Below, piece by piece: positions 4,657 to 29,400 of a stretch of 31,819 bases of DNA. The notes beneath the pieces were generated by a model that saw only the letters and a program-made list of their open reading frames with translations, did no database searches and was not told the DNA's origin. Every line of letters begins with the position of its first letter. Within the stretch, counting starts at the first letter, position 1. Origin of the DNA: a virus (taxonomy: Duplodnaviria > Caudoviricetes); the IMG/VR virus record IMGVR_UViG_3300024310_000022, positions 1 to 31,819 of that record, one strand, 5' to 3'. The position numbers and the translations under genes are program-made.

Positions 4657-5160
4657 CTAAAACGCGATGTTCGCGGGCTCTTCACGGATAGAATGGAAGG
4701 ATCCGCCAAGGCGGCCGCCAACCAGTTGCCCGGCGACCGCGATGGAAATGTTTTTCACCACCAGCGCCACGGTGGCCAGTTCCATGATGTGAATGCCGTC
4801 CACTTGCGAGGGATTCGAAACCGATCCCATCGACGCGATGATGTTGTCGAAATTCGGCGCGACGGTGCCTTTGGGCAGATCGAGAAAAATCTGCCAGATG
4901 ATCGCGCTGGAAAAATCGGTGAAGCCGCCGCCAACGAACACGTTGGCGATGCGGCGAATGAAGCCGTTGTTTCCGCGCGGCACCTGGAAGGAAAACACGG
5001 TGGCTTGCGCGCCGATCGCCGGCAGCGGGACGCCGCCGTGGAATTCGAACGGCTTGCCGCTGGGCGCCATGAAATTCTGCACGGGGAGCTGCGGCACTAC
5101 CACCGCGCACGATGGCTCGTAGATCGACTTGCCCTGTTTTCTTGTGAACGCGGTATTCAC
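4657..5160 (-). CDS. Putative minor capsid / beta-sandwich virion protein, 167 aa
   Basis: Beta-rich (VFSFQVPRGNNGFIRRIAN), same size as the two upstream paralog-like genes, GTGA coupling. Confidence 0.7.
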   Translation of the reverse strand: MNTAFTRKQGKSIYEPSCAVVVPQLPVQNFMAPSGKPFEFHGGVPLPAIGAQATVFSFQVPRGNNGFIRRIANVFVGGGFTDFSSAIIWQIFLDLPKGTVAPNFDNIIASMGSVSNPSQVDGIHIMELATVALVVKNISIAVAGQLVGGRLGGSFHSIREEPANIAF

Positions 5161-5654
5161 GTGATTTTTTTCCTCGTGTCTGGCCGCAGCCCCAGGCCCA
5201 CAAGCTGAATCGCGTTGCCGGCCGTGGCCAGGTTGATGATCCGGGATTCCAGTTGGTCGCCGACGTGGATGTGCTGCGGCGTCAGCAGATAAAACGGCCG
5301 CTGGCCGGTGCCCAGCATGTCTTGGTTGGGAACGTCGTCATCCTGGAAGTTGGTTTCTTCACCCGGCAGGAATATCTGCGCGGCGAAGCCGGCCGCTTGC
5401 TGGGAGCTGGCCATTAGCGCGATCAGCCAGGTGTCTTCCTGGACGGTGATCTGGCCGCGGTCGGTTTGCTGCGCGCCGATCACGCCGTCGTAAATCAGAA
5501 ACCAGAATGGCCGCGTGGCGAGCACGCGGCCCAGGGCGTCGTCGCGTTCGAGGCGCCAGTCGTTCGGCCAATCCGGCGTTGCGTCCCATTCGTCTTCGTA
5601 AAGACCCGGCGGGATGGGATTCACCGGCACTCCAAATACTTGGAGCATGCCCAT
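5157..5654 (-). CDS. Putative minor capsid protein (paralog of 5672-6160), 165 aa
   Basis: PFWFLI..GTGQRPFYLLTP..NAIQLVGLG aligns with LFWYLI..GTAQLPFRMPKP..NTIQLCLAG. Confidence 0.75.
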   Translation of the reverse strand: MGMLQVFGVPVNPIPPGLYEDEWDATPDWPNDWRLERDDALGRVLATRPFWFLIYDGVIGAQQTDRGQITVQEDTWLIALMASSQQAAGFAAQIFLPGEETNFQDDDVPNQDMLGTGQRPFYLLTPQHIHVGDQLESRIINLATAGNAIQLVGLGLRPDTRKKIT

Positions 5655-5671
5655 GTGGTTTTCCTTCCCCC

Positions 5672-6160
5672 TTAGCTCGTCGGCGCCTTCGGCAGTTTGT
5701 CGATCTTGTAGCCCGCCAGGCAGAGCTGGATGGTGTTCGGCGCGGCGCTGCGATCGTTGAACTTCGCCTTGATCGTCGACGTCCGGTAGATCGGGTACGG
5801 CTTGGGCATCCGGAATGGCAACTGCGCGGTGCCGGCAAAGTTTTCACCGTTGATCGGCCCAGTCATCAGCGGAGAGTTACCGGCGAAGCTGTCGAACAGC
5901 TCCACGCTGTAAAGCCCCGTCTGGCTGGAAATGATCCAGCGCCACTGGAAGTCCGCGTCGTTATCCGTGGTGACGCTGGCCAGCACGCCTTGCTGGTTCG
6001 CCGTCAACTGCGCGGGCGAAATCAGGTACCAGAAAAGCTGGTCCGTGAGATCTAGCGAAACCTGCGTCGTCCCCAGGCACAGCGGACATTTTTGCGGCGA
6101 TCCTGTTTGCGCGTTCGCCACCGCTCCGCGGCCCTGGCAAGCTGGACAAGTTGAATTCAT
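5672..6160 (-). CDS. Putative minor capsid protein with N-terminal CxxCxGxG zinc finger, 162 aa
   Basis: CPACQGRG...CPLCLGT followed by a beta-rich domain; AGGAAAGGAAG RBS. Confidence 0.75.
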   Translation of the reverse strand: MNSTCPACQGRGAVANAQTGSPQKCPLCLGTTQVSLDLTDQLFWYLISPAQLTANQQGVLASVTTDNDADFQWRWIISSQTGLYSVELFDSFAGNSPLMTGPINGENFAGTAQLPFRMPKPYPIYRTSTIKAKFNDRSAAPNTIQLCLAGYKIDKLPKAPTS

Positions 6161-6704: not shown

Positions 6705-7475
6705 CTACTGAGCAACTCGGATCAACTGGCCGTCCTGGCGGAACCATGCGCACAGGCCAGCCGCCACGACACCGGCAGGGAAGCCCGCCGCGGCCAACGC
6801 GGTGGGGGATCCGTTGCCGCCGCCCACGAGGGCGTTGCCGCTGGGGTCCACGATGCAGTCGAACGTTTCCTGCGGGTTGATGTACTGCCCGCCGGGAAGC
6901 GCGTAGACGTTATCGGTTTCCGCCCAGCCGTTGGTGTTGGTGACGCTGGAGACGGGCGCCGTCAGCGTGCCGAAGCCGCTGGTGAACTGGCCGCCGCCGC
7001 CGGGGAGCCACGCGGGGATGCCGATGAAGTATTCCTTTTTGTTGATGCGGAATTTCACCAGCGAGCCCAGCAGGTTTTCCATGTCTTCACGATGCACGCC
7101 GGGGTGCGCCGTGCCCTGCTGGCCCTGCACGTAGATCGAAAGCGCGCGCACGATGAACGTGTACGAGGATTCGAGCTGGCCTGGCTGCACCAGCGAGCAG
7201 TGCTGTTCGCCCTTGGCAAACGCGGTGACGCCGTTAAATGCGTAGTTCGCGCCCTGCTGGAGCGTGTAGAGAGCCAGTTTGTTGAACGTGCCGCCGGCGG
7301 CGACAGCGTAGATGTCAAACAGGCTCCACACCACGAATTCCGGGATGCCGGTATTCGGGTTCTTCATCCGCGGCGCGCGGGGTTTCCCCAGCTCATACGC
7401 GGTGATTTTTTCCATGCGCCGCACGTGACGGTGGCTTTTGCCAGCGCGTCCGGCGGTTTCGATATTTCGTGACAT
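6705..7475 (-). CDS. Candidate major capsid protein (single jelly-roll-like), 256 aa
   Basis: Basic N-terminal arm ending in MKNP, then a beta-rich domain (WSLFDIY...K..HCSLVQPGQLESSYTFIVRALSIY); strong RBS AAGGGAG; flanked by stem-loops; central position in the structural operon. The fold is inferred, not demonstrated. Confidence 0.6.
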   Translation of the reverse strand: MSRNIETAGRAGKSHRHVRRMEKITAYELGKPRAPRMKNPNTGIPEFVVWSLFDIYAVAAGGTFNKLALYTLQQGANYAFNGVTAFAKGEQHCSLVQPGQLESSYTFIVRALSIYVQGQQGTAHPGVHREDMENLLGSLVKFRINKKEYFIGIPAWLPGGGGQFTSGFGTLTAPVSSVTNTNGWAETDNVYALPGGQYINPQETFDCIVDPSGNALVGGGNGSPTALAAAGFPAGVVAAGLCAWFRQDGQLIRVAQ

Positions 7476-7605: not shown

Positions 7606-8463
7606 CTAAGCCCAGCGGCTGGCGTCGCCGGCGCTGTTGACGCCCCAGCGGCCCGTGCCGATGCCGTGCATGGCCGGCGCGGGAAGCGCCGCAGCCGCGG
7701 CCGCCGCACCTGCCCGCACCGCCGCGGCCGAAGTGGCCGGGAAGGGCGGGTTGGAAAGCGACGGATTGCCGGGGAACATGCCATACGGTCCGCCAGCGCC
7801 TTGCGGGTACGGGAAGCGATCGTCGACGTAGTACGCGAGATCGCCGCTCATTGCCGCGGACGTGGTGGAGCCGGTGGTGGCCGCGTGGTCCTTCACGATG
7901 CGCAGCAACAGGGAGAGCCCCGTGCCGATCAACGCGCCGGTGCCCCAGCCGCGTCCCAGGAAGCGTTTCAGCCCCCAGGACAGCGCCAGCCCTGCACCGG
8001 CCTGAATTGCATAGCCGGTGATGCCGGTGTTATACGCTGCGAGCTGCGGGATCAACGACGGCAGCGCGTTGCTGCCGAAGAATCCGATCGCCGCGCCGCC
8101 CACCGTCTGCAGCATGCCGCCGCTGGTGAACGTGCTGAGCCCCGGATTGCTGCTGCGCCGGCGATGATGCCGCCTGCGTCCGCTGCTGCGTCTCCGACCC
8201 TTGCGCCGAGGCGCGGCCAGAAACAGCGTGCGTGGATTCGAACTGCGGTGAATAACACGCCGGCGGCGCGAAGCTCGACGCTTCGCACTACGGCGTTTTC
8301 TGCTCTTCGCCATGTGTCCTCCGCCTGCGTTTTTTTGCGCAAGCGCGCGACGCATCTTTGCCCAGTAGCGTTTCAGCCCGCTGGGCATTTTGCGTTTGCG
8401 CGCGTTGCGGCGTGAAGGCCGGCGCTTCGCGCGGGATGAATTCACAAGCCGTACGGTTGGCAT
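7606..8463 (-). CDS. Arg-rich protamine-like DNA-condensing core protein with C-terminal membrane segments, about 285 aa
   Basis: ATG 8463 with AAAGGGGAAAGGA RBS; about 110 aa of R/K/S-rich sequence (RRRRSSGRRRHHRRRSSNP) followed by three Gly/Ala-rich hydrophobic helices. Confidence 0.8.
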   Translation of the reverse strand: MPTVRLVNSSRAKRRPSRRNARKRKMPSGLKRYWAKMRRALAQKNAGGGHMAKSRKRRSAKRRASRRRRVIHRSSNPRTLFLAAPRRKGRRRSSGRRRHHRRRSSNPGLSTFTSGGMLQTVGGAAIGFFGSNALPSLIPQLAAYNTGITGYAIQAGAGLALSWGLKRFLGRGWGTGALIGTGLSLLLRIVKDHAATTGSTTSAAMSGDLAYYVDDRFPYPQGAGGPYGMFPGNPSLSNPPFPATSAAAVRAGAAAAAAALPAPAMHGIGTGRWGVNSAGDASRWA

Positions 8464-8529: not shown

Positions 8530-9267
8530 CTATCCTCGCGAGTCGCCGCCGAAAATCGGCACGCCCCCGAAGAAATGACACTCGCCCGTGGTCTGATCCA
8601 CCAGGAACGCGCAATGCGTTCCACCGGCGTCGGGCCGAAATTCGATTTTCCATTCCGCCGGCTTGAAGCCGTGGGAGTCGCCGGCCTTGAACTCTTCCGG
8701 CTGATAGGTGAGGCGCAGCACCGGCTGGAACACCAGGTAGTTGCTGCCGGCGAGCCGATCGTTGGTGCGATCATCGAGCCGCTGCGGAATCATCCGCGGC
8801 TTGTCTTTGCCGGCTCGGAGAGTCACGTGTTTGTGCGGCCGCGTTTTTCCGCCGGGGAGAACGTCCACGGTTTTCCGGCAGTTCGCGTCGCAATCCGGAT
8901 TCATCGCCTCTTCGGCCGTGTACGCTTCCGCGCGCCAGGTGGGATCCACCAGATCCGGCAGGCCCACGTAGCCGTCGCTGCGGATCAGCGGCGCCATGCA
9001 CAGGATCATGTTCTTATCCGGCGCCTGCGCGATCGGCAGCCACTGCCCGCTGAGATCCAGCATGCGGCCGCGCGCGTTTTGCTGCGGCTGCGGACCCCAT
9101 CCGCTGATGATCGGATCGCGCGGGGGAGGCGTGTACGTGTCGCACGGCCCCACGGCGATCGTGCGCATGCGGCCCAGCGACAGGCAGTTTTTCGTGCGCA
9201 CCAGGTCTGTCTGGTATTTCAGGATGTCCGCCGGCGACATCGTTAAGGTTTGTGTTGCGCTTCCCAT
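8530..9267 (-). CDS. Hypothetical protein, 245 aa
   Basis: In-operon ORF with AAGGAGA RBS; no motif recognised (no Walker A). Confidence 0.75.
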   Translation of the reverse strand: MGSATQTLTMSPADILKYQTDLVRTKNCLSLGRMRTIAVGPCDTYTPPPRDPIISGWGPQPQQNARGRMLDLSGQWLPIAQAPDKNMILCMAPLIRSDGYVGLPDLVDPTWRAEAYTAEEAMNPDCDANCRKTVDVLPGGKTRPHKHVTLRAGKDKPRMIPQRLDDRTNDRLAGSNYLVFQPVLRLTYQPEEFKAGDSHGFKPAEWKIEFRPDAGGTHCAFLVDQTTGECHFFGGVPIFGGDSRG

Positions 9268-9306: not shown

Positions 9307-10101
9307 TTACAGCAACTTCCACAAAACAAAAAACCCCGCTGCTGGCAGCACCCAGGACGGCAAGCCCACGCCGGCGATCGCGCTGCTGATCGGGGAAAGT
9401 GGATTGGCCGCCGCTTGCTGCGCGGCCGCCGCGGCCAGATCGTCGAACTGGCTGGACATCTCCGCAATCGCGGCCTTCAGTTGTTTTGAAAGCACACACG
9501 CCGCGTTGCACGCCGACGAACTGTCTTTGAGGATCGAAGCGACCTGCTGCCGGAATTCTGTGTAGAGCTGCGTCAGCGCGGCCTTGCCGTCCGCCGGGGA
9601 AATCGTTCCGTTTTGCACGGCCTGATAAATTGCGCTCAGCCCGTCGTTGGCCGCGGGCATCGCCGCGCACTCCACTTGCTGCTCTTTTCTCACCGCGGCC
9701 GCGTGGCCGGCGAAGAGAGTGCCGAACAATCCAAGCAGTGCGCCGCCGAGCGCGACGAACGGAGCGGCCGGCCCAGTCAGTGGAGCAAGTTTCACCGCGG
9801 CTCCGCCGGCCGTGATCATGATTGCCGGCTTCAGCGAAACGGCGCCGGTGCCGCCGCAGCTCGTGGGGAGTTGGGACGCGAGCTGCAGGTTTTGCGCGGA
9901 CTGCGTGATCTGGTTGTAGACCGCCTGCGTGAAGCCGGCCTTGCCGCTGACTGTGTTTTTCGGCATGGCGATCTGCGCGGCCTGGTCCGGTGTGATCGCG
10001 GAAAGATGCGAAAGCCTGCGGCGCACACGCTGGCGCGAAAGCGCGGCGCCCATCTGATAGGTGCCGCGCGGTGCCGCGCCGAGTTGTGCCGCCTGATACA
10101 T
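9307..10101 (-). CDS. Tail-anchored virion membrane protein, 264 aa
   Basis: Starts MYQ; internal hydrophobic hairpin; helical domain with Cys; C-terminal TM (LPSWVLPAAGFFVLWKLL). Confidence 0.8.
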   Translation of the reverse strand: MYQAAQLGAAPRGTYQMGAALSRQRVRRRLSHLSAITPDQAAQIAMPKNTVSGKAGFTQAVYNQITQSAQNLQLASQLPTSCGGTGAVSLKPAIMITAGGAAVKLAPLTGPAAPFVALGGALLGLFGTLFAGHAAAVRKEQQVECAAMPAANDGLSAIYQAVQNGTISPADGKAALTQLYTEFRQQVASILKDSSSACNAACVLSKQLKAAIAEMSSQFDDLAAAAAQQAAANPLSPISSAIAGVGLPSWVLPAAGFFVLWKLL

Positions 10102-10290
10102 TTACTTGGCTTGTCCCTCTTCCGCGTCCGCCGCGTTCGATCCGAGATCCCCGACCTCACCCACGTCGCCGACGTCGCCGCACTCAGCGCGATGCGTTTG
10201 CGTTTTGGCCGAAGGCGCCGACGTCGTCGACGGCGCCCCCTGGCCCTGCTGCTGTCCGACTGGTTTTCCGTTGATAGTGGTCAGCGTCAT
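10102..10290 (-). CDS. Small low-complexity protein, 62 aa
   Basis: GAGAGGGGA RBS; MTLTTINGKP start; GDVGDVGEVGDLG repeat; abuts the next gene. Confidence 0.65.
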   Translation of the reverse strand: MTLTTINGKPVGQQQGQGAPSTTSAPSAKTQTHRAECGDVGDVGEVGDLGSNAADAEEGQAK

Positions 10291-10300
10291 TGGTCCCCTC

Positions 10301-11170
10301 TCAGTTCTCGATGCCCGGCGAAATTTTCCCCAGCGGTGTTCCCGGCGCGGGCATGTTCACGTCCACCCAGTAGTTGCCGCCGATAAAAAAGATTTGTTTG
10401 CGCAGCTTGTCGTACATCAGCCGCGGTAGCGTGCCGTCCACTTCGCCGAATTCGTGGTAGTACTCCACTGGCTGAAACTTGCCGTGGATCTTCCGCGCCA
10501 GGTACGCGACCTCAAGCGCGTCGCCCAGATCGATGAAGTCTTTCTGTTTCGAATCGTCGTCGAGGCACGGGAGAATGTTTTGGTTGCCGCCGATGCAGTA
10601 GAGCTGCTTGCCATCCGGAGAGATGGCCAGCTTCACACCGTCGCCGTGGAAGTTGAACTCCGCCTTTTTGCCTACCGGCGTTTCCACTTTCAGGTACACC
10701 AGGTCGCCGAGCGCGGTGTAATCCAGCCGCGTGGCGGCGCTGACGTGCTTCTCCACGACCTCTTTCGGATCGTGCCCGTGGAAACCCTGGAACAGCCGTA
10801 CGGCTTGCTCCTCTTCGCTGGGATTGCGGCGTGGCTTCACGCTTTTCTTTTTCGGGTTCAGCCGGGCCGCGCGGATCCGCGCTGCTCGATCGCGCGCGGT
10901 GCGCTTCTTCTCAACCGTCGATGGATTGCCGAAGATCAGCAGCTCGCCGGGATTCTTCCGCGCCTTCTCGCTCAGCGCGCACTTTGGATTTTTCTCGCCG
11001 GCCGGGTGAAGGATCTCCACCACTTTGCCGCTGCCTTTTTTGCGGCGGCCGGGAGGGAACGCGATGCGCACCTCGTGTTTCGAATCCGCGCCCGGCGCAA
11101 TCGTGCGCACTTTCCATCCGCGCGGCGTTTCCGCAACGTGTTCGGTCCGCATTTTTGCCGCACCGGCCAT
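10301..11170 (-). CDS. Virion protein with basic NP-repeat N-terminus and internally duplicated C-terminal domain, 289 aa
   Basis: KNP, KNP, GNP, LNP, RRNP in the N-terminal half; two LGD...KQ(L/I)(Y/F)xIGGN units; TGATG coupling. Confidence 0.8.
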   Translation of the reverse strand: MAGAAKMRTEHVAETPRGWKVRTIAPGADSKHEVRIAFPPGRRKKGSGKVVEILHPAGEKNPKCALSEKARKNPGELLIFGNPSTVEKKRTARDRAARIRAARLNPKKKSVKPRRNPSEEEQAVRLFQGFHGHDPKEVVEKHVSAATRLDYTALGDLVYLKVETPVGKKAEFNFHGDGVKLAISPDGKQLYCIGGNQNILPCLDDDSKQKDFIDLGDALEVAYLARKIHGKFQPVEYYHEFGEVDGTLPRLMYDKLRKQIFFIGGNYWVDVNMPAPGTPLGKISPGIEN

Positions 11171-11955
11171 CAGAGTTCCTTCACCAGGAGTAACGCGCCG
11201 AGCCCCAGGCCGATCGGCAGGGCATAGGCAGAAACAAAACTGGAAAGATCGAAGCTGGCCGCGGCGGCGCCCAACACTATTTGCGACGCGGTCACCTGGC
11301 GGCCAGCGTTGCCGATGGCGCTGTCGATGATGGCCTTGATGTCCTGCGCCTGGCCGTAATCGCGCGTGGTGTGGATGGTGATGGAGAAACCAGTCGCCTG
11401 CCCCACAACGGTGGAAGGGATCGTGCTGCTATCGATTTCGATTCCCCACTGCTGGGAGAGAATCGGCTTCACCGTGGCGAGGATCTGCGAAGGGTTGGCG
11501 ACGTTGAGAAGGGAACTGGCCCACTGCACGGAATACGTCAGCACCGATCCGCTCTTCAGAAAGTTGCTGGGCGTTTGGGTGACACTCGACGTTGTGGTGG
11601 ACGTCGAAGGCGGCGTGATGGGTTGCGGTGCGGCCGGCGTCTGAGGATATGCGGCAATCTGTGCGACAACCGCTCTCAGGTCGGAACCACTCAGCGTGGT
11701 GACCACGTTGCCGTTGGAGTCGTATACATTTCCGTTGGTGACGTCGACCAAAGTCCCATCGGCGTACTGCACGATCGTTCTATCCGGCGTGATCGTATAA
11801 ATCGGATCGACACCAGGCACGGCACCCATCCGGCCCAGTCCGCCCATGCGTTTCGTTGGCGGCGTGGAGATCCCGCGCGCGGAACATCCGCAGCCCATTC
11901 GGCCGAGGTTCCACTTGCGGTTATTCACCGGCGCCGGGTTTTGCAACAGATACAC
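11170..11955 (-). CDS. Tail-anchored virion membrane protein, 261 aa
   Basis: MYL start; VNNRKWNLGRMG and MGGLGRMG motifs; P/T linker; C-terminal TM (YALPIGLGLGALLLVKEL). Confidence 0.8.
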   Translation of the reverse strand: MYLLQNPAPVNNRKWNLGRMGCGCSARGISTPPTKRMGGLGRMGAVPGVDPIYTITPDRTIVQYADGTLVDVTNGNVYDSNGNVVTTLSGSDLRAVVAQIAAYPQTPAAPQPITPPSTSTTTSSVTQTPSNFLKSGSVLTYSVQWASSLLNVANPSQILATVKPILSQQWGIEIDSSTIPSTVVGQATGFSITIHTTRDYGQAQDIKAIIDSAIGNAGRQVTASQIVLGAAAASFDLSSFVSAYALPIGLGLGALLLVKEL

Positions 11956-11956
11956 G

Positions 11957-12265
11957 TCAGCTCCTCAGCTCACGAAGTGCGCGGCGAACTTTTCCGCCAC
12001 GCGAGCTGCGCGGATGTTTGCGACCGAACAGAAACGCGGCCAGCGCGAGCGCTCCGATGCCCAGGCCGAGCGCTGTGGGATCCAGCGTCACCGGATCCGC
12101 GCCGAGGCCGCCGCCGGGAATGAAGCCGCGCGCCATCGCCTGGTTCGGCCGGAAGAAACGCAAGCCGCCGCCAGGCAACAAACCGGAAAGCGTGGAGGTG
12201 GATCCCCACTTTGTGTTGATGGGGAAATACCCGTTCGAATTGCCGCATTGTGAGGTGAGGTACAT
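11957..12265 (-). CDS. Small tail-anchored membrane protein, 102 aa
   Basis: Likely start ATG 12265 overlapping the upstream TAA (TAATG): MYLTSQC...GGGLGAD..TM (ALGLGIGALALAAFLF)-basic tail. Confidence 0.75.
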   Translation of the reverse strand: MYLTSQCGNSNGYFPINTKWGSTSTLSGLLPGGGLRFFRPNQAMARGFIPGGGLGADPVTLDPTALGLGIGALALAAFLFGRKHPRSSRGGKVRRALRELRS

Positions 12266-12942
12266 TAGCGCCGCCTTCCTCCGCCGCCGCCGAGCGCGGT
12301 CAGCGCAAACAGGCCGGCGCCTGCAGCGAGCAGTGTTGTGGGGCTGAGCCCGAAAATTGTTCCGCTCGGCGCGGCGGCCGCTTTGTTGGTGGCGTTTTGG
12401 TAGCTCTGCTGCCAGAGCTGGTTCACCACGCCGGCGGGAACTCCTGCAGCGATCGCGGCTTGCGGGCTGGGAAACCGCGCCAAACTGGCCGTCCATGTGC
12501 TATAGACCGTGGCGGGATCCAAGCCGGCAGCGATCGCCGCTTGAGGAGAGGTGTAGTCCAGCGGATTCGTGGAAGGCCTGGTGGCCGGCACCGTGGTGAT
12601 GCCGCCGTTCGAAGCGCTGCCCGTAACAGGGCTTGGATTCTGCGCGCCCGTACGAACCGGCGTATTGAGCGCGGCGGTCCACGCTCCGCCATTCGCGGCG
12701 CACTCCGTTGGATCCGAAAACAGATCCAAAGATTCTGCTGTGGTGCCATCTGCAGAGAAGTAGGTGCAGTAGCCGGATGACGGTGCATCGCCAAGCCCGC
12801 GCAGCCCGCGCAGCCGCCACGGTTGCCCTGTGCTGCTGGCGCCCATGCGGCCCAGATTCGGCAAACGCACCGGCTGCAATCCCATGCGGCCGAGATTCCA
12901 CTTCCGGTTGTTTACTCTCGTATTGGAGTCCATCAGGTACAT
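12265..12942 (-). CDS. Tail-anchored virion membrane protein, 225 aa
   Basis: MYL start; VNNRKWNLGRMG, NLGRMG, LRGLRGLGD; duplicated SPQAAIAAG; C-terminal TM plus GGGGGRRR. Confidence 0.8.
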   Translation of the reverse strand: MYLMDSNTRVNNRKWNLGRMGLQPVRLPNLGRMGASSTGQPWRLRGLRGLGDAPSSGYCTYFSADGTTAESLDLFSDPTECAANGGAWTAALNTPVRTGAQNPSPVTGSASNGGITTVPATRPSTNPLDYTSPQAAIAAGLDPATVYSTWTASLARFPSPQAAIAAGVPAGVVNQLWQQSYQNATNKAAAAPSGTIFGLSPTTLLAAGAGLFALTALGGGGGRRR

Positions 12943-13568
12943 CAGCGCTTACCCCCTGAAGTGACTTTGTAAAGCAGCAGCGCTCCGCCGCCGGCCACGA
13001 TCCAATTCGGGATCCCCGCAAAACCGATCGAGGACAAAAGCGAGTCTTGCTGCAGCCAATCGAAAATTTCTTGGTAGCCACTGCTCGCTGCAGCGGGAGC
13101 GATGCTGACGTTCACCGGTGGCGGTGCGGTGGTTCCAGCGGGAGCTGCGGTGCTGGCGCCTGAAGAAGAAGGTGGCGGCGCCGGCGGCGTGGCGCTCGCG
13201 CCCGTGTTGTACGGCGTGCCCACGTTGATCCACTTCGCCTGCGAGGGGCTGTACTGCCAAAAGGATCCGTCCGTGTTTACGAAGATCTGGTTGGTGGAAT
13301 AACCGGAAGGAACTGGCGTGCCGGAATTCGCGCTGACGGGTGGCGCGGTCACGGGCGGCATTGGTGCGGGAAGAATCGGCGGCCGCGGCGTTGTTACCGG
13401 CAACTTGATCACGGTGGAAGTCGTGCTTACGATCGGTTGGTTCACCGTAGGGATCGGTGCCGGCGCAACGGGACGGATGACTGGCCGGATCGAGCTGTCA
13501 TACCGAATCGATGGCAGCGAGATCGCCAGGCCCATGCCGTTCATTCGTCTGTGGCCCTGAAGGTACAT
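12942..13568 (-). CDS. Pro-rich tail-anchored virion membrane protein, 208 aa
   Basis: MYLQGHRRMNGMG start; Pro/Thr-rich linkers; C-terminal TM (IPNWIVAGGGALLLYKV) plus GGKR. Confidence 0.8.
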   Translation of the reverse strand: MYLQGHRRMNGMGLAISLPSIRYDSSIRPVIRPVAPAPIPTVNQPIVSTTSTVIKLPVTTPRPPILPAPMPPVTAPPVSANSGTPVPSGYSTNQIFVNTDGSFWQYSPSQAKWINVGTPYNTGASATPPAPPPSSSGASTAAPAGTTAPPPVNVSIAPAAASSGYQEIFDWLQQDSLLSSIGFAGIPNWIVAGGGALLLYKVTSGGKR

Positions 13569-13574
13569 TCCGAG

Positions 13575-14594
13575 TCAGCGTCTCCCTGCCAGCAGCAATG
13601 CGCCGCCGACTATCGCGGCACCAATCAAAAGCGTGTTGGTGGAGATCCCACCCACCTGGGAAGTGATCGGCAGCAAAGAAGGCGACGCGGCTCTTTGCGT
13701 CATGGACGTGGTAGGCACCAGGTTGTACGGCGAAGCGCGTTCGGCCGTGATGATGTTGGCCGCGCCGGTGGTTGCGCCCTGAATCGCGGTCGACAGTCCG
13801 CTCCAATCGAAGCCATCGTCGTCGCCGAGCGTGCGGCGAAGATCGTCTCGACTGAAATCGGAAAGCGCGCGTCGCGCGGCCGGCACACCGTAGTTGCCGA
13901 GGCCGATCGGCGGCCGCTTGAACTGCTGGTGCGGCGGCGCCACGGGAAATTTATTCAGATAGGTACCGGTCATTTCTCTCGCCGGCATTCGAAAAGGCGC
14001 ATACAAGTTCGCGCGCCAGGCGCCGACCGGGCCTTGGCCTGGTGCGATGCTGTTCCGCACGTTGCCCATTCCACGCATGTCAGTGAACTCCTCTGAGTCC
14101 ACGCACCACACGCGCTTGCGCGAGTAATGTTCCGGACTCTTCCCAAACGCGGGATGCCGACGCGCGGCGTCGAGCGCTACCCAGCGGCCGTTCACTTCCG
14201 CTTCGGGATAGACGTGGGAGAATTCGCCGCCCGGATCCGTGGCGATCGTCACGATGCGGCAATCGCATCCGATCGTTTTCAGCAGGGAACAGATCAGCAC
14301 CGTGTGATCGTCGCAATCCCCGATGCCCAGCCGAATAATGTCCGCCGCGCCGTGCAGCGTTTCGTTCCCGTCGACGTCGCGCGTGAAACGCAGGTTGCGC
14401 CGCACCGCTTCGTAGATCGCGCGCGCTTCGCCTTCCCAGTCGTACGCCGGCACGTTCGCTTTGCGCAGGATCTGCGCCGCCAGCTCGTGCACCTTGGGAT
14501 CTTGTTTGCCCTGGTGAATCAATCGACGCATCTGCCGGATGGTCTGCTCTACTCCGGGATCGCCGTCGAGGTGCGGTATGCGCGTGAGTTTCAT
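13575..14594 (-). CDS. Transglutaminase-like cysteine enzyme (putative maturation protease) with C-terminal membrane anchor, 339 aa
   Basis: Triad motifs GDCDD, FSHVYPE, WVALDA of the transglutaminase-like superfamily; then MRGMG/IGLG/TLGD motifs and a C-terminal TM (TLLIGAAIVGGALLLAGRR). Confidence 0.88.
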   Translation of the reverse strand: MKLTRIPHLDGDPGVEQTIRQMRRLIHQGKQDPKVHELAAQILRKANVPAYDWEGEARAIYEAVRRNLRFTRDVDGNETLHGAADIIRLGIGDCDDHTVLICSLLKTIGCDCRIVTIATDPGGEFSHVYPEAEVNGRWVALDAARRHPAFGKSPEHYSRKRVWCVDSEEFTDMRGMGNVRNSIAPGQGPVGAWRANLYAPFRMPAREMTGTYLNKFPVAPPHQQFKRPPIGLGNYGVPAARRALSDFSRDDLRRTLGDDDGFDWSGLSTAIQGATTGAANIITAERASPYNLVPTTSMTQRAASPSLLPITSQVGGISTNTLLIGAAIVGGALLLAGRR

Positions 14595-14781: not shown

Positions 14782-14810
14782 TTGTGAGGTTTGCTGAGTA
14801 GTGGTATATG
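14782..14810 (+). promoter_or_regulatory. Putative sigma70-type promoter of the early arm
   Basis: TTGTGA-17 bp-TATATG with a TG extended -10, upstream of a GGGAGA RBS and TTG 14852. Confidence 0.4.
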
Positions 14811-14851
14811 TAGGGTGCTTCGCGGTAGCGGATGGCAATGGGAGAAATACA

Positions 14852-16273
14852 TTGCCGAGAAAAATCGACGCCTCACCGGCCACGCCGGTGATCAACATCA
14901 ACACCTCTGCGCCCGCATCCTCTCCAGAAACTGAAAAACCGGTAGTCCCGAAGGAAGAAAAGGAAATTAACTGGTTTTTCACCGAACTCGCGGACAAACC
15001 CACGCACGAGTGGGGAAGGGTCTGGAGTTTGGAGCTGCACCGGTTGAAACCGGATGTGCCAGGAGTACCCGGTACGAAAGGGTATCTGCGTTTGTTCAGC
15101 GAGCCGGTGACGCTGGAAACGATTCGCTCGAATTTCGGCGGCGGTCGCTTCCGCCTGAACCTTTGCAAGAACGGCCGCTGGCACACCAGCCACGAATTTG
15201 AAATCGAAGGCCAGCCTATCTACGACCCGAATCGCGAACGGCCGGCGGTGAACGGCAACGCGGCAATCAGCGGAGACTTCCAGAAAGAACTCGTCAGTAT
15301 GCTGCGCGAAGAGTTGCAACGCGGCCGCGACGGGCAAGCGCCTGGCGGAGAGGAAGTGATCAAGATGCTTACCTCCGCGAGCGAAAAGGCGATGGAGATC
15401 GTCACCAAACAGACGACGCCCGCAAGCGATCCGGCCGCACAGTTGAATGCGTTGCTGAGCGCCGCGAAAACTCTCGCGGATCTCCGAGCCCCGCAAAGCA
15501 ACGGATTGGGCGAACTGGGCCAGTACATCGGTCCTCTGCTGAAAGCCGTCATGGAAAAACTGGTGACCCCAGTGGATCCGTTGGCGGAGTTGCAAAAAAT
15601 GGCCGGGCTGATGGACGTGCTGGAAAAAATTCGCGGTGGTGCCGGGGACGCGCCGCCGAAAGATTGGCGCGCCGCGGCCGTGCAGGCCGTTACCTCGCAT
15701 CTGCCGGAAATCCTGGACACGTTCAAAACAACTTCCGCGAACACTGTCGCCGCGAATCAAGCACGCGCGCGCGCCGCGGAAGTGATGCGCGGAGCTTCAC
15801 CGGCCGCCGCTGCACCCACAGCGCCGCCAGCGAACTCCGCACCTGCAATAGCCGCAGTAGCGCCGGCGGCGCCGGTGAATTCGAACGGTGGCTTGCGCCT
15901 GGTGCCGCGCGATTCGGTGGACGAAGCGCCGCCGGCACCCGAGCAGCGTGCGGAAACCGCCACGGCCCAACCACTGTCAGTGGAAGAGCACCGGCACGCT
16001 TTGAAAATCAACGTGGTAAATTTATTCATGCACGGCGCCAGCGGCAGCAGCATCGCGAGCTACGTCGAGGATGTGGATCCAGAATTCGCGGCGGACTTCG
16101 GCAAATACACCACGGACCAGATCATCAGTTTTTTTGCGACCGACGAAATCCTGAAGGTGATGGTGGATTCCAGGCAGCCGCCAAGCGATCCCACTTTTCC
16201 CACGCGGCTGCATGAAGTGCTCGCCGACGCGCGCGAGTTCGTGAACGAAGGCCAAGAGATCACCGTCAACTGA
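14852..16273 (+). CDS. Hypothetical protein, about 473 aa (small beta domain, helical region, Ala/Pro linker, helical C-domain)
   Basis: Long ORF with coding-like codon bias; TTG start with GGGAGA RBS preferred over GTG 14801; no family recognised. Confidence 0.8.
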   Translation: MPRKIDASPATPVININTSAPASSPETEKPVVPKEEKEINWFFTELADKPTHEWGRVWSLELHRLKPDVPGVPGTKGYLRLFSEPVTLETIRSNFGGGRFRLNLCKNGRWHTSHEFEIEGQPIYDPNRERPAVNGNAAISGDFQKELVSMLREELQRGRDGQAPGGEEVIKMLTSASEKAMEIVTKQTTPASDPAAQLNALLSAAKTLADLRAPQSNGLGELGQYIGPLLKAVMEKLVTPVDPLAELQKMAGLMDVLEKIRGGAGDAPPKDWRAAAVQAVTSHLPEILDTFKTTSANTVAANQARARAAEVMRGASPAAAAPTAPPANSAPAIAAVAPAAPVNSNGGLRLVPRDSVDEAPPAPEQRAETATAQPLSVEEHRHALKINVVNLFMHGASGSSIASYVEDVDPEFAADFGKYTTDQIISFFATDEILKVMVDSRQPPSDPTFPTRLHEVLADAREFVNEGQEITVN

Positions 16274-16503: not shown

Positions 16504-18039
16504 ATGTCCACTGTCCCATTCACGCGCGCGCGCCAAGTTCCACTTCCCAACGATCTCCGAGAAAAACTGCCGACCAACATAGACGCCGAGCGATCAATCC
16601 TCGGCGGCATCCTGCTCGAGAACAAATCGATCACGGTTGCCCTGAAGGAACTAAAGGCCTCGGATTTCTCCGTTTCTGAAAACCAAATTATTTTTCAAAT
16701 GATGTCTTCGATCGCCGAAGAGCAAACCGCAAGGGAAGAGACGCTGGCGATCGACCTGGTGATCCTCACCGAACGTCTGCAGGCGATTTCGAAACTGGAA
16801 GCGGCTGGCGGAGCCGGTTACCTGGCGTCGCTGATCGACGGCATGCCGCGCGTCACCAACGTGGCGCACTACGCGAAGATCGTTCGCGAAAAATCCCAGC
16901 AGCGGCGGCTGATGCACCTGGCCTACAGTCTGCAGCTCAAGGCTGCGCAAGGCCGCGACGGCGAAGACGAAGGCATCGAGTCGATCATGAAAAGATCGAT
17001 TGAGGAGATCACCGCGATCCGGGAAGAGAAGGCCTCCACGGAAAACCCGGTGGTGGTGGTGCCATACAGTGAGCTGCTGACGCTGGAACTTCCGAAAGCG
17101 GATCCTTTGATCGAGCCGCTCGTGACGCGCGCTGGCACGTTTATGATTTTCTCCTGGGCCGGTTGGGGAAAAAGCTGGATCGCCACTCACCTCGCGTTTG
17201 GTGTTTCGAATGGTTTGGATGTTCTGTTCGGCGGGCATGAAGGACCTGGTGGACACTGGCCCGTCTATGGTCCGATGCGCACGCTGTATCTCTACGGCGA
17301 AATGCACGGAGAGAAAATCCGCGAGCGGTTGAAACTGATCGGCAAACACTTCAAGACGGAGCCGAATTTTTCCGACCTGGCCACTGTCTCCAAAGACTAT
17401 CAGCGGATCGCGCGCGCGCCGCGCTGCGCGCATGCCTGGCGGCCGAGCATCAAGGACGCGCGCGACCGGAGATTCATCGAAGAGTTTCTTTCAGGTGAGG
17501 GTTATCCGTTCCTGGTGCTCGACAACATCTCCACGCTGTGGAGCGCCGCGCAGGAAGATCAATCGCGCCAGGTCGCGGAGCTGAAAGAGTGGTTCATCGA
17601 TCTAAATTCGCGCGGGATCACGGTGTGCTTCCTCCAGCACGCCGGCAAGGGTGGAGATTTTCTCGGCGACTCCGCGCAGGTCCACATTCTGGATTCGTAC
17701 ATCAAGCTGGAACATCCCGGAGACTATCGGCGATCGCAAGGCCTGCGCGTGGTGCTGAGCGTGGAGAAGATCCGCCACGAGCTGCGCGATCCGCACTGGG
17801 GCGTGCCGTTCGAAGCGCAGCTCGTCACCTCGCCGGAAGGCGGCGCGGAGTGGTTGACGCGGCCGGCGATGAGCGCGATGAAGAAAACGGTTTTCGAAAT
17901 GTTCTCGAACGGCGCGCCACCAACCGAAGTGTTGCGCGCCTTCTCGATCCTGAAGCGGCCCACACTCTACCGCTGGCACCACGAGTGGAAAGAGAAGAAG
18001 TCCTCCGACACCACGTCCTCCGACGACGATGAACAATAG
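16504..18039 (+). CDS. Replicative helicase/initiator: DnaB N-terminal domain + RecA-type AAA_25 ATPase + C-terminal HTH, 511 aa
   Basis: LPTNIDAERSILGGILL...AAGGAGYLASL..NVAHYAKIVREKS (DnaB-N); Walker A variant SWAGWGKS; Walker B LVLDNISTL; QHAGKGG; C-terminal PTEV..LKRPTLYRW. Confidence 0.88.
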   Translation: MSTVPFTRARQVPLPNDLREKLPTNIDAERSILGGILLENKSITVALKELKASDFSVSENQIIFQMMSSIAEEQTAREETLAIDLVILTERLQAISKLEAAGGAGYLASLIDGMPRVTNVAHYAKIVREKSQQRRLMHLAYSLQLKAAQGRDGEDEGIESIMKRSIEEITAIREEKASTENPVVVVPYSELLTLELPKADPLIEPLVTRAGTFMIFSWAGWGKSWIATHLAFGVSNGLDVLFGGHEGPGGHWPVYGPMRTLYLYGEMHGEKIRERLKLIGKHFKTEPNFSDLATVSKDYQRIARAPRCAHAWRPSIKDARDRRFIEEFLSGEGYPFLVLDNISTLWSAAQEDQSRQVAELKEWFIDLNSRGITVCFLQHAGKGGDFLGDSAQVHILDSYIKLEHPGDYRRSQGLRVVLSVEKIRHELRDPHWGVPFEAQLVTSPEGGAEWLTRPAMSAMKKTVFEMFSNGAPPTEVLRAFSILKRPTLYRWHHEWKEKKSSDTTSSDDDEQ

Positions 18040-27690: not shown

Positions 27691-27876
27691 TTAGATTTTT
27701 CCAGAGGCGAAGCGGCGGATGATGGCGCGGCCGGCGGCGCGGATCGCCAGGCCCAGGAAGAGCGCCGCGGTGGTCAGCACCACCGTTGCGATCAGCAGCG
27801 CCACCGCGACGGTGGCGACAAAGCGGCCGGCTTCGTCGATCGCGTCGCAGATCTGCATCACCGAGGGAGTGATCAT
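27691..27876 (-). CDS. Small single-TM protein, 61 aa
   Basis: ATGA coupling with the endolysin; long hydrophobic stretch then a basic tail. Confidence 0.6.
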   Translation of the reverse strand: MITPSVMQICDAIDEAGRFVATVAVALLIATVVLTTAALFLGLAIRAAGRAIIRRFASGKI

Positions 27877-28454
27877 CCGGGCAGCGCCCCGTCAATGTTT
27901 TGGTAAATTTCCATGCGGCGGAGGCCGTTGGGGATGTACTTGGGATCGGCGGTGGGGGAGTGCGGGCGCCCAGTGTTCCAGCAGTCGAACATCTCGGAAA
28001 AATCCGCCGCCAGGTCAAACTGATAGCGCCGGGCGAAATCGGCCAGCATGCGCGTGGCGACGTCCATCTCCGAAGCGGGAGTCTGCAGCGCAACGATCCC
28101 GTTGGTGTGCAGCGCGATGGCTTCGTAGCCCATGACCTGCACCAAGCCCCAGGACGTGGAGAGCTGATCGAGCGCCACGATCATCTGCATGTTCAGCGTG
28201 CTTGAAACCTGCTGGCCAAAGGCGATGATGTTTTCCCGCGCGATCGAGCCGTAAAACGCTTTGCGGTTCAGCAGCACCGCGAAGAGCTGCGCCAGCACGC
28301 CAGGCTCGAAGCGCTTCGCGTCCGGATTGCCGCCAGATTCGTTGGCGACGAGCGCCGCGAGAAACGCCGGCGGCACGCTGGATGCCCTGCACGCGGCGTC
28401 GATCACCGCGCCCCACTTCGTCTTGATCGACTGCATCAGCTCCTGATCGGTCAC
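27873..28454 (-). CDS. Endolysin, lysozyme/transglycosylase fold, about 193 aa
   Basis: LAALVANESGGNPDAKRFEP (catalytic ES), STSWGLVQVMG, CWNTG. Confidence 0.85.
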   Translation of the reverse strand: MTDQELMQSIKTKWGAVIDAACRASSVPPAFLAALVANESGGNPDAKRFEPGVLAQLFAVLLNRKAFYGSIARENIIAFGQQVSSTLNMQMIVALDQLSTSWGLVQVMGYEAIALHTNGIVALQTPASEMDVATRMLADFARRYQFDLAADFSEMFDCWNTGRPHSPTADPKYIPNGLRRMEIYQNIDGALPG

Positions 28455-28678
28455 TCGTCCCACCCTTCGCCGAACGCTTCCAGGTAAAACCGGCGCGCCG
28501 CACGCATCACGTCATCGATCGAGGTGCATTCGGAGGCGGGGCTGTAGTTGGCTTGTTCGATCGCCCACTGCCGGCGATCTTCGCGCAGTCGCTTTTTCTG
28601 TTCTTCCTCGGCCACCAGGCGAAGCAGCCGCGCCATCTCGTCGCGCTCCGCTTTTTTGTTTGGGAAGAGACTGAACAC
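28451..28678 (-). CDS. Hypothetical helical protein, about 61-75 aa (start uncertain)
   Basis: Coding-like frame between the SLT and endolysin genes; GTGA coupling at the 3' end. Confidence 0.55.
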   Translation of the reverse strand: MFSLFPNKKAERDEMARLLRLVAEEEQKKRLREDRRQWAIEQANYSPASECTSIDDVMRAARRFYLEAFGEGWDE

Positions 28679-28728: not shown

Positions 28729-29400
28729 CTAGTCGTTGAGGAGATCGCGCAAGAGGACAACAGCGAGCGCCGCGCCCGCTGCCACCAGGACCGGTGTAGG
28801 CACCGAAGAAAGATCCAGAGAGGGAAGGGAAGCGGCGGTTGCCGGCGGCGTGGGAGTCGAATCGTCGATCGGCTGGCCGGTGGCGGCGTCGATCGTGAGG
28901 GGCGACGCGCCCTGCGAGTTCGGAGGCGTCGAGTCCGGCGAACTGACCGACGGTGGCGTGACCCCGGCGATCTTCGCCACGTAGTTTTGCGTTTCGGCCG
29001 GCGCGTGCGCCAGCCACTGATCGCCCCAGGCGGCAATCGCCTTGCCGAGATTTCCCGGACCCCAATCGTAAGCCGCCAGCGCCTTGGCGATGTCTCCGAA
29101 CCGATTCAGCAGATCCGCCAGATAGTGCACGCCGGCATCGATGTTCGCGGCGACGTTGCGGCAATCGGAAACACCGTATTGCGCGGCCGTCGACGGCAGG
29201 AGCTGCAGCACGCCGCAAGCGCCGCTGCTGGGATTGATGACGTTGCGAAAACCGGATTCCTGCTGCGCCTGCGCGAGGATCAGCGAAGGATCGAAGCCAT
29301 AGCGCGCCGCAGCCTGCACCAGGAGCTGCTGGATGCTGGCGGCGCTCACCGTGTCGCCAAGCCCACGAAGCGCGAAATATGGATTGCGTCGCCTAGCCAT
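28729..29400 (-). CDS. Virion-associated lytic transglycosylase (SLT) with C-terminal membrane anchor, 223 aa
   Basis: AQAQQESGF..SSGACGVLQLLPSTA..NIDAGVHYL..ALAAYDWGPG..ETQNYV; P/S/T linker; C-terminal TM; N-terminus MARRRNPYFALRGLGD. Confidence 0.9.
   Translation of the reverse strand: MARRRNPYFALRGLGDTVSAASIQQLLVQAAARYGFDPSLILAQAQQESGFRNVINPSSGACGVLQLLPSTAAQYGVSDCRNVAANIDAGVHYLADLLNRFGDIAKALAAYDWGPGNLGKAIAAWGDQWLAHAPAETQNYVAKIAGVTPPSVSSPDSTPPNSQGASPLTIDAATGQPIDDSTPTPPATAASLPSLDLSSVPTPVLVAAGAALAVVLLRDLLND

Follow-up and report, generated by a model that had tools for sequence, protein, structure and literature searches.

A transglutaminase-fold enzyme and a short Leu/Met-Gly tag on membrane-anchored proteins suggest a virion maturation system in a group of tailless bacterial viruses

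Here we analyze a transglutaminase-fold enzyme and the membrane-anchored proteins encoded downstream of it in the IMG/VR virus record IMGVR_UViG_3300024310_000022, whose 31,819 bases (98% complete by the collection's estimate) make up the window, that is, the whole stretch of DNA under study. The virus belongs to a widespread, little-studied group of tailless bacterial viruses in which most predicted membrane-anchored proteins bear the same short Leu/Met-Gly tag. Judged from sequence, the balance tips toward the enzyme being a membrane-tethered virion maturation protease that would cut after an [LM]-[G/S] tag. A preliminary description of this DNA had proposed such a protease, and with the same slight preference this is still the best reading of the data: the tag is enriched in late membrane proteins and kept in relatives that carry the enzyme, and the pattern looked for in maturation proteolysis, a short motif shared at the predicted propeptide boundaries of several late proteins, is present.

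The enzyme is encoded at the head of a tightly coupled minus-strand operon that begins at 14594:

13575-14594, minus strand: transglutaminase-fold enzyme (PF01841), 339 amino acids; first gene of the late operon

The PF01841 match covers residues 38-143 (E 1.8e-11; 44.7 bits against a gathering cut-off of 23) of a catalytic domain that spans approximately residues 1-172, with a triad of C94 (14313-14315), H127 (14214-14216) and D142 (14169-14171). The intact Cys-His-Asp transglutaminase-like domain reported in the preliminary description is thereby borne out, each residue being found in 120/120 of the close homologs listed. The enzyme family comprises 376 50%-clusters at E<=1e-30; among the best 150 cluster representatives, the three triad positions are kept in 149, 150 and 150 sequences, respectively. 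Sequence matches in the PDB are transglutaminase-like (3ISR, E 6.5e-9), and the only Pfam families detected are PF01841 and PF24656, with no Ulp1/adenain domain. The catalytic domain is followed by a basic linker, an acidic/amphipathic body and a predicted C-terminal anchor plus RR. The linker holds the motifs MRGMG (14064-14078), IGLG (13896-13907) and TLGD (13821-13832), so that the placement of the motif between a short basic leader and the body, as first described, does not extend to the enzyme, whose own tag is internal, between domain and anchor. After leaving out 17 of the 150 representatives for want of a clear anchor, G[LM]G is found in the linker of 95/133 anchored representatives, against 18.8 in shuffled sequences. 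The segment after the tag is modestly amphipathic (77/105 exceed their own shuffles), and a profile of this body matches protein P3 of PM2 (L099 6345-6659; E 1.5e-4 among 2,362 open reading frames, ORFs), a match that vanishes if the anchor is left out of the profile.

For comparative analysis, loci were collected around homologs of the enzyme and of the predicted capsid protein, and genes were called with our own hexamer model, after which starts were extended. The 94 sequences with an enzyme hit were reduced to 71 below 85% identity and then to the 38, including the window, with at least 3 kb downstream, the others being dropped; conservation of gene families was counted over 27 spanning loci. 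Proteins were considered tail-anchored if they had a 15-residue hydropathy window of at least 1.6 within their last 40 residues. For the main comparison, tags were counted in the first 100 residues only, with anchors excluded, and set against composition-preserving shuffles. The tag patterns are partly post hoc, since they were taken from the preliminary description and the first loci viewed, and the homologous proteins entering the counts are not independent of one another.

Across the 38 loci, 105/147 tail-anchored late proteins contain G[LM]G or [LM]G[DQ], against 28.0 in shuffled sequences (maximum 40). The same patterns are at expectation in early proteins (15/202 vs 15.4) and in post-capsid proteins (9/83 vs 12.1), and the enrichment in late versus early proteins that had been set as a check is therefore strong for late membrane proteins. 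For the longer form G[LM]G[DQ], 45 occurrences were counted and 3.1 expected. The core of the tag in these sequences is [LM]-G, sometimes [LM]-S, and its first Gly is optional. It lies early in the anchored proteins (median position 30) and at a basic-to-acidic boundary, with a mean net charge of +2.3 before and -1.0 after the tag and a higher charge before than after in 66/81 cases. A Leu or Met precedes the tag by two residues in 59% of cases; Leu or Met also recurs at -3 (57/135 sites), -6 and -9, indicating tandem sites. Two further patterns are not specific: [MLI]xGG is raised equally in early (1.8-fold) and anchored (1.7-fold) proteins, and the loose pattern [RH].{0,3}[LM]G[ADQES], raised in early proteins as well (24/202 vs 10.6), was not used.

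In the window, the tagged cassette following the enzyme comprises five genes:

12942-13568, minus strand: Pro/Thr-rich tail-anchored protein with an MYL start, MNGMG at 13530-13544 and a weak anchor; homologs in 14/27 loci
12265-12942, minus strand: tail-anchored protein with an MYL start, two LGRMG (12880-12894, 12841-12855) and LRGLRGLGD (12787-12813); homologs in 5/27 loci
11957-12265, minus strand: small membrane protein of 102 amino acids with an MYL start, GGGLGA (12098-12115) and a basic tail; homologs in 6/27 loci
11170-11955, minus strand: tail-anchored protein with two LGRMG and MGGLG; homologs in 7/27 loci
9307-10101, minus strand: conserved tail-anchored protein with a central hydrophobic segment, two conserved Cys and a leader with QLGA, QMGA and LSHLSA; found in 27/27 loci

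The six ORFs, enzyme included, and every motif quoted for them were located where the preliminary description had placed them. Its statement that all six proteins end in a transmembrane helix needs qualifying for 12942-13568, in which no 17-residue window exceeds a Kyte-Doolittle value of 1.5. The six proteins contain nine G[LM]G against 1.74 expected, a number reached in 0/1000 shuffles, with three of the nine in C-terminal anchors, and four [ML]xG[ML]G against 0.19 expected. The 14 early window proteins show no G[LM]G excess, and the other 25 minus-strand proteins, taken as a set, show no enrichment (2 vs 4.5 expected). Two genes inside the range first described (10301-11170 and 10102-10290) encode proteins with neither anchor nor leader tag. 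For 9307-10101, the copies QLGA and QMGA initially taken for the tag turned out to be additional upstream copies. By eye, homologs place LG[ADQ] directly before the conserved body, and the window has LSHLSA (9997-10014) at this family-conserved boundary; LG[ADQ] is found within the first 100 residues in 28/33 homologs, against 8.7 in shuffled sequences. PHROGs and NCBIfam searches of the cassette returned no matches.

Two proteins encoded elsewhere on the minus strand also carry the tag:

7606-8463, minus strand: Arg-rich core-type protein with two SNP tags in its basic part, a hydrophobic middle, MSGD (7840-7851) and MHGIG (7657-7671); found in 26/27 loci
28729-29400, minus strand: tail-anchored SLT lytic transglycosylase with both tag classes in its first 16 residues (RNP, 29380-29388; LRGLGD, 29353-29370)

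Beyond the cassette, the tag is thus seen in individual proteins and not in the other minus-strand proteins as a set. In the core-protein family the tag follows the hydrophobic part in 26/28 members, against 6.8 in shuffled sequences, and the MSGD of the window lies at this conserved site; the tag is thus not only an N-terminal signal. The window encodes two SLT-type lytic enzymes, one soluble (27873-28463) and the other tagged and tail-anchored.

The anchored proteins are rich in Gly (10.8%), 30/158 G[LM]G are located in anchor helices, and two window genes (11170-11955 and 12265-12942) share a 12-residue stretch of their leaders, features expected if the tags simply arose from low-complexity, Gly-rich sequence or from gene starts that had been copied. 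We attach next to no weight to this explanation, which is refuted by the shuffles (28 expected, 105 observed) and by the shared stretch itself, where 6/12 codons differ and all differences are synonymous. Codon use in the tag is free, and together with these synonymous differences this indicates that the tag is kept at the protein level; a DNA-level repeat as its origin was rejected. Homologs of four of the five substrate families are restricted to 5-14/27 loci, and the protein bodies therefore turn over between genomes while the tag stays.

If the enzyme is a maturation protease, tagged precursors would collect at the internal membrane while the single-jelly-roll particle assembles, and the tethered enzyme would there remove the basic leaders and uncap the membrane-protein bodies. 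Papain-fold enzymes usually prefer a hydrophobic residue at P2 and a small one at P1, and the cut would follow this register rather than that of the adenovirus type. The enzyme would also trim the C-terminal tail of the core protein and free its own catalytic domain from the PM2-P3-like anchored body, and the leaders may help to recruit proteins before being cut. The sequences themselves show an intact triad and a boundary-placed, tandemly repeated tag that accompanies the enzyme; we infer the virion location, the hydrolysis, the scissile bond, the self-release and any DNA-binding role of the leaders. A complex prediction for the enzyme domain with a 40-residue tagged peptide scored 0.02 and counts neither way.

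The residue following GLG bears on an alternative chemistry, in which the enzyme, a transglutaminase or transpeptidase, would either join tagged proteins to one another through the Gln of GLGQ and Lys or move the severed leader or domain onto an amine, such as that of a lipid or of a capsid lysine. The family name and its known transamidase members speak for this activity, as does the fact that Gln is the commonest residue at that position (22%, 4.2-fold). The remaining 78% of sites lack Gln (D 18%, A 17%, R 9%), the window has it at no site except the upstream QLGA and QMGA, and no conserved acceptor Lys is seen. The cross-linking that the preliminary description offered as an alternative is accordingly weakened, and we regard this activity as improbable.

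A second tag class, basic-N-P, was missed by the preliminary description; it is present in 10301-11170, 7606-8463, 6705-7475 and at 29380-29388. Across the loci, [RK]NP occurs 76 times in non-anchored late proteins, against 10.6 expected, and 5 times in anchored ones, against 6.4. In the window its main carriers, besides the core protein, are:

10301-11170, minus strand: soluble protein whose basic N-terminal region contains N-P tags (KNP, KNP, RNP and others) and whose C-terminal domain is beta-rich and conserved
6705-7475, minus strand: major capsid protein with a predicted single jelly roll; its basic N-terminal arm, modelled with low confidence, ends in N39-P40

[RK]NP is found in 18/27 capsid proteins, and N39-P40, at the end of the arm, is invariant in 47/47 capsid sequences. 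The domain of the N-P protein (10304-10831, minus strand) has invariant Tyr, Lys and His residues and looks internally duplicated; a short ORF in L002 (12570-12848) resembles its second half only. The model of the C-terminal domain (pLDDT 82) had no Foldseek match at E<=0.001 and only Atlas matches under 0.9, and its best VIA match is to PilZ/split barrels (Z 4.6). The domain is a candidate second enzyme, though without a clear fold match a protease role is conjectural. By eye only, it resembles the C-terminus of gp43 of SSIP-1, a cultured phage that encodes a homolog of the transglutaminase-fold enzyme (E 0.021, probability 2%; E 0.1).

The N-P tag opens the possibility that the enzyme acts elsewhere, either on this Asn-Pro motif in the capsid and core proteins or, as a virion lysin, on host cell-wall cross-links, and that the L-G tag is read by the host or by another viral protein. 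The invariance of N39-P40, the persistence of N-P tags in L109 and L002, where L-G tags decay, and a weak match to a pseudomurein-binding repeat protein of Methanobacterium virus Drs3 (E 3e-4) are compatible with such a role. The enzyme itself is tagged with L-G in 30/38 copies and with N-P in 5/38, the virus already has its two SLT-type lytic enzymes, and the N-P protein has a Y/K/H set of its own. Another substrate is thus unlikely.

Alternatively, the leader, with its M-Y-hydrophobic start, basic stretch and L-G tag, might stay uncut and serve as a sorting or docking signal that directs tail-anchored proteins devoid of a signal peptide to the viral membrane, its receptor being either an assembly factor or the enzyme domain. 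A Tyr at positions 2-4 is found in 64/147 anchored proteins and in 11/202 early ones, the two tag classes split cleanly by compartment, and a conserved divergent gene (14801-16273) provides a candidate receptor. In one clade of six loci (L112, L113, L120, L121, L123, L125), moreover, leaders are only 4-10 residues long, ending in LG or MG. Tandem copies of the tag and a triad that is never lost, and that a pure receptor would not need, are at odds with this role, and the internal tag of the enzyme and the C-terminal site of the core protein are easier to reconcile with a cut site than with an N-terminal address. We consider an uncut signal a possibility to be taken seriously, with a probability well short of even.

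The link between enzyme and tag was also approached through the N-P protein. A profile search with this protein retrieved 29 records, 25 of them with the enzyme, which is kept in 22/22 records that are at least 90% complete; the four enzyme-less records are 16-81% complete. Eight of the 29 records are contigs already in the sample and some are near-duplicates; six already-sampled contigs were left out, and the other 23 were read with rough ORF calls. This co-occurrence is not fully independent, because of this overlap and because the query profile was built from enzyme-bearing loci. The tag persists in homologous genomes that keep the enzyme, as the preliminary description would lead one to expect, with a partial counter-example in L109. 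There the enzyme (9935-10919) is unanchored and the membrane body is a separate next gene (profile E 1.5e-6, dependent on the anchor part).

Several observations weigh against a maturation protease acting on the L-G tag. L109 keeps C/H/D with 0/4 strict tags, showing only VGD/VGE/MGE variants. In the six-locus clade the enzyme's anchor directly follows the domain, with no linker or self-tag, and strict tags are found in 1-4 of the 7-9 anchored proteins, as roughly called. Co-occurrence with the enzyme is just as strong for the N-P tag, and within-genome concordance of tag flavor between enzyme and substrates is not significant (L/M, P 0.14; D/Q, P 0.09). P23-77, which has no enzyme, contains 4 G[LM]G in anchored proteins against 0.76 expected (P 0.012), and tag enrichment in SSIP-1 is marginal (P 0.04-0.07). 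A core of two residues gives a specific protease very little to recognize, and the Tyr near the start suggests that the leader can also be read as an address. PF01841 comprises transamidases and deamidases in addition to proteases (PMC10318531, excerpts), and cleavage itself is at present a deduction from sequence. The GLG sites of P23-77 have no basic leader or D/Q, and no tag excess was seen in the enzyme-less controls IN93, SH1, PRD1 and PM2. In the six-locus clade, the gene after the enzyme encodes a short leader with GLG/GLA/GLS followed by a body that looks, by eye, like that of the enzyme. Loci of this clade (L112 134-1104 and the other five) also encode many small, Cys-rich anchored proteins.

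The capsid model (pLDDT 72) is all-beta, with a single jelly roll. Its top matches are single jelly-roll capsids, SPV1's capsid protein first (Foldseek E 8.9e-4; VIA Z 7.6, rmsd 3.9, 137 aligned), and P23-77 VP17 gives Z 6.4; with Z below 8, the model supports a single jelly-roll fold and is not decisive for kinship. The 98%-complete record has no PF01580 (FtsK-family) match that would indicate a packaging ATPase, and no Walker A motif was found downstream of the enzyme in the 38 loci. A 190-kb contig from a Candidatus Angelobacter (Acidobacteriota) genome contains a relative at 51% identity, and this makes a bacterial host likelier. From the anchored proteins and SSIP-1 we infer an internal membrane in the particle.

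Taken together, the two tag classes might form a code in which basic leaders ending in [LM]-G (membrane proteins) and N-P (capsid and core proteins) bring DNA, membrane and shell together in assembly, after which the anchored protease and the Y/K/H domain of the N-P protein cut the tags off, in a large lineage of single-jelly-roll, ATPase-less bacterial viruses. We put this forward tentatively, as a scheme with more chance of being wrong than right by a wide measure. Maturation by proteolysis is well documented in tailed phages and in the jelly-roll viruses of eukaryotes. The two-tag code, if true, would mean that such maturation arose independently in tailless prokaryotic viruses, and would offer a way of encapsidating a genome with no motor. 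The proposed protease, if real, would mean that a different fold had taken on this task, membrane-tethered and processing itself, in a family of 376 protein clusters or more, and would add a maturation step new for tailless phages of this kind. It would also bear on the way in which a virus lacking a packaging ATPase encloses its 32-kb genome and later lets it out.

The remaining genes analyzed in the window are the following:

10102-10290, minus strand: small acidic protein without tag or anchor
8530-9267, minus strand: conserved soluble protein; found in 27/27 loci
4657-6160, minus strand: three small conserved proteins after the capsid gene; two profiles match gp47, a structural protein of SSIP-1 (E 2.1e-6 and 1e-5)
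14801-16273, plus strand: conserved 490-amino-acid protein, divergent from the enzyme gene; homologs in 25/27 loci
16504-18039, plus strand: protein with a DnaB N-terminal domain, an AAA_25 helicase domain and a C-terminal HTH-like part; the group's replication gene

The 10102-10290 protein has a G-D/E-V repeat that is also present in L015 and L021. The 8530-9267 protein was considered as an alternative protease and rejected, as it has no conserved Cys/His/Ser catalytic set and no Atlas match. A second capsid protein may be among the three small post-capsid proteins. A divergent gene encoding more than 300 amino acids occupies the position equivalent to 14801-16273 in 35/38 loci; its product resembles SSIP-1 gp33 by eye only, with no hit in the search. 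In the early region of one relative (L005 5684-6607), an ORF resembles, by eye, an insertion-sequence transposase.

Among known systems, the adenovirus protease (AVP, adenain) is likewise a cysteine protease, cutting the precursors of minor capsid and core proteins at short motifs with Gly (PMC3386624, excerpts). The label adenovirus-like in the preliminary description holds by analogy only: the window enzyme belongs to PF01841, is membrane-anchored and would act in a bacterial host within a single jelly-roll capsid. The AVP consensus is (M/I/L)XGX-G and (M/I/L)XGG-X (PMC3386624, excerpts), and only 38/135 [LM]G[DQ] sites fit the (M/I/L)xGx-G form, with 57 having neither its Gly nor the upstream hydrophobic residue. 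Polintons (PMC11161782, excerpts) and virophages encode proteases of the Ulp1 family. With this consensus fit and no Ulp1/adenain domain, an adenain/Ulp1-type system was rejected. The prohead proteases of T4 (gp21) and SPN3US (gp245) provide the closest working analogy, as much as adenovirus, in that they act at a short motif on N-terminal propeptides of many internal proteins, as far as the published excerpts describe them. The prohead protease removes propeptides including its own C-terminal one, and these propeptides have been proposed to double as targeting signals (PMC7411985, excerpts). These are Ser/His enzymes of HK97-fold tailed heads with soluble substrates, whereas the window encodes a Cys enzyme with membrane-anchored putative substrates.

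Double-glycine leader systems combine a C39 domain fused to an ABC transporter with leaders ending in GG or GA. Such a system was rejected, with no C39 or ABC domain among the 38 window proteins and no Walker A motif downstream of the enzyme in the 38 loci. The PF01841 superfamily (PDB 3ISR; 4U65) has fold and triad in common with the window enzyme, and the viral clade adds a tagged linker and a tail anchor. The pseudomurein endoisopeptidases PeiW and PeiP are presumably relatives of this superfamily. The excerpts of PMC10318531 describe no PF01841 member as a virion maturation enzyme.

SPV1 (Portogloboviridae) shares the single jelly-roll capsid fold and also has no packaging ATPase (PMC8812541, excerpts); Portogloboviridae have one jelly-roll capsid protein, no ATPase and an archaeal host, and a bacterial host is likelier here. 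In Helvetiavirae/Singelaviria there are two types of capsid protein and a packaging ATPase of the FtsK-like kind (PMC8812541, excerpts). P23-77, IN93 and SH1 have the single jelly-roll fold but no enzyme homolog, and PM2 has no enzyme homolog either. Novelty was assessed against excerpts of PMC5894146, PMC6356626, PMC6260650, PMC10318531, PMC11161782 and PMC8812541. For tailless membrane-containing prokaryotic viruses, neither proteolytic maturation nor a transglutaminase-like gene was found in the open-licence literature, single passing mentions of "transglutaminase" being left unchecked; the term "protease" occurs 0 times in the excerpts of PMC5894146.

A comparison with a cultured phage is provided by SSIP-1, whose gp34 is a homolog of the enzyme (tblastn E 7e-12; HHalign 99.2%, triad aligned). 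Like the window enzyme, gp34 has a C-terminal anchor and GMG in its linker and is the first gene of a structural block; its record labels it a structural protein without assigned function. ORF36, gp37, ORF52 and gp53 carry GMG/GLG, gp40, gp41 and gp44-46 carry N-P, and gp47 matches two window families. SSIP-1 differs in that gp40 is a P-loop protein and its capsid proteins are of two types (PMC6356626, excerpts), which do not match the window capsid profile, and its leaders are less basic. The protease proposed here would give gp34 a candidate function and would predict exact processing sites in a cultured phage. Since SSIP-1 is cultured and carries the enzyme as a structural protein together with similar tags, the idea is directly testable.

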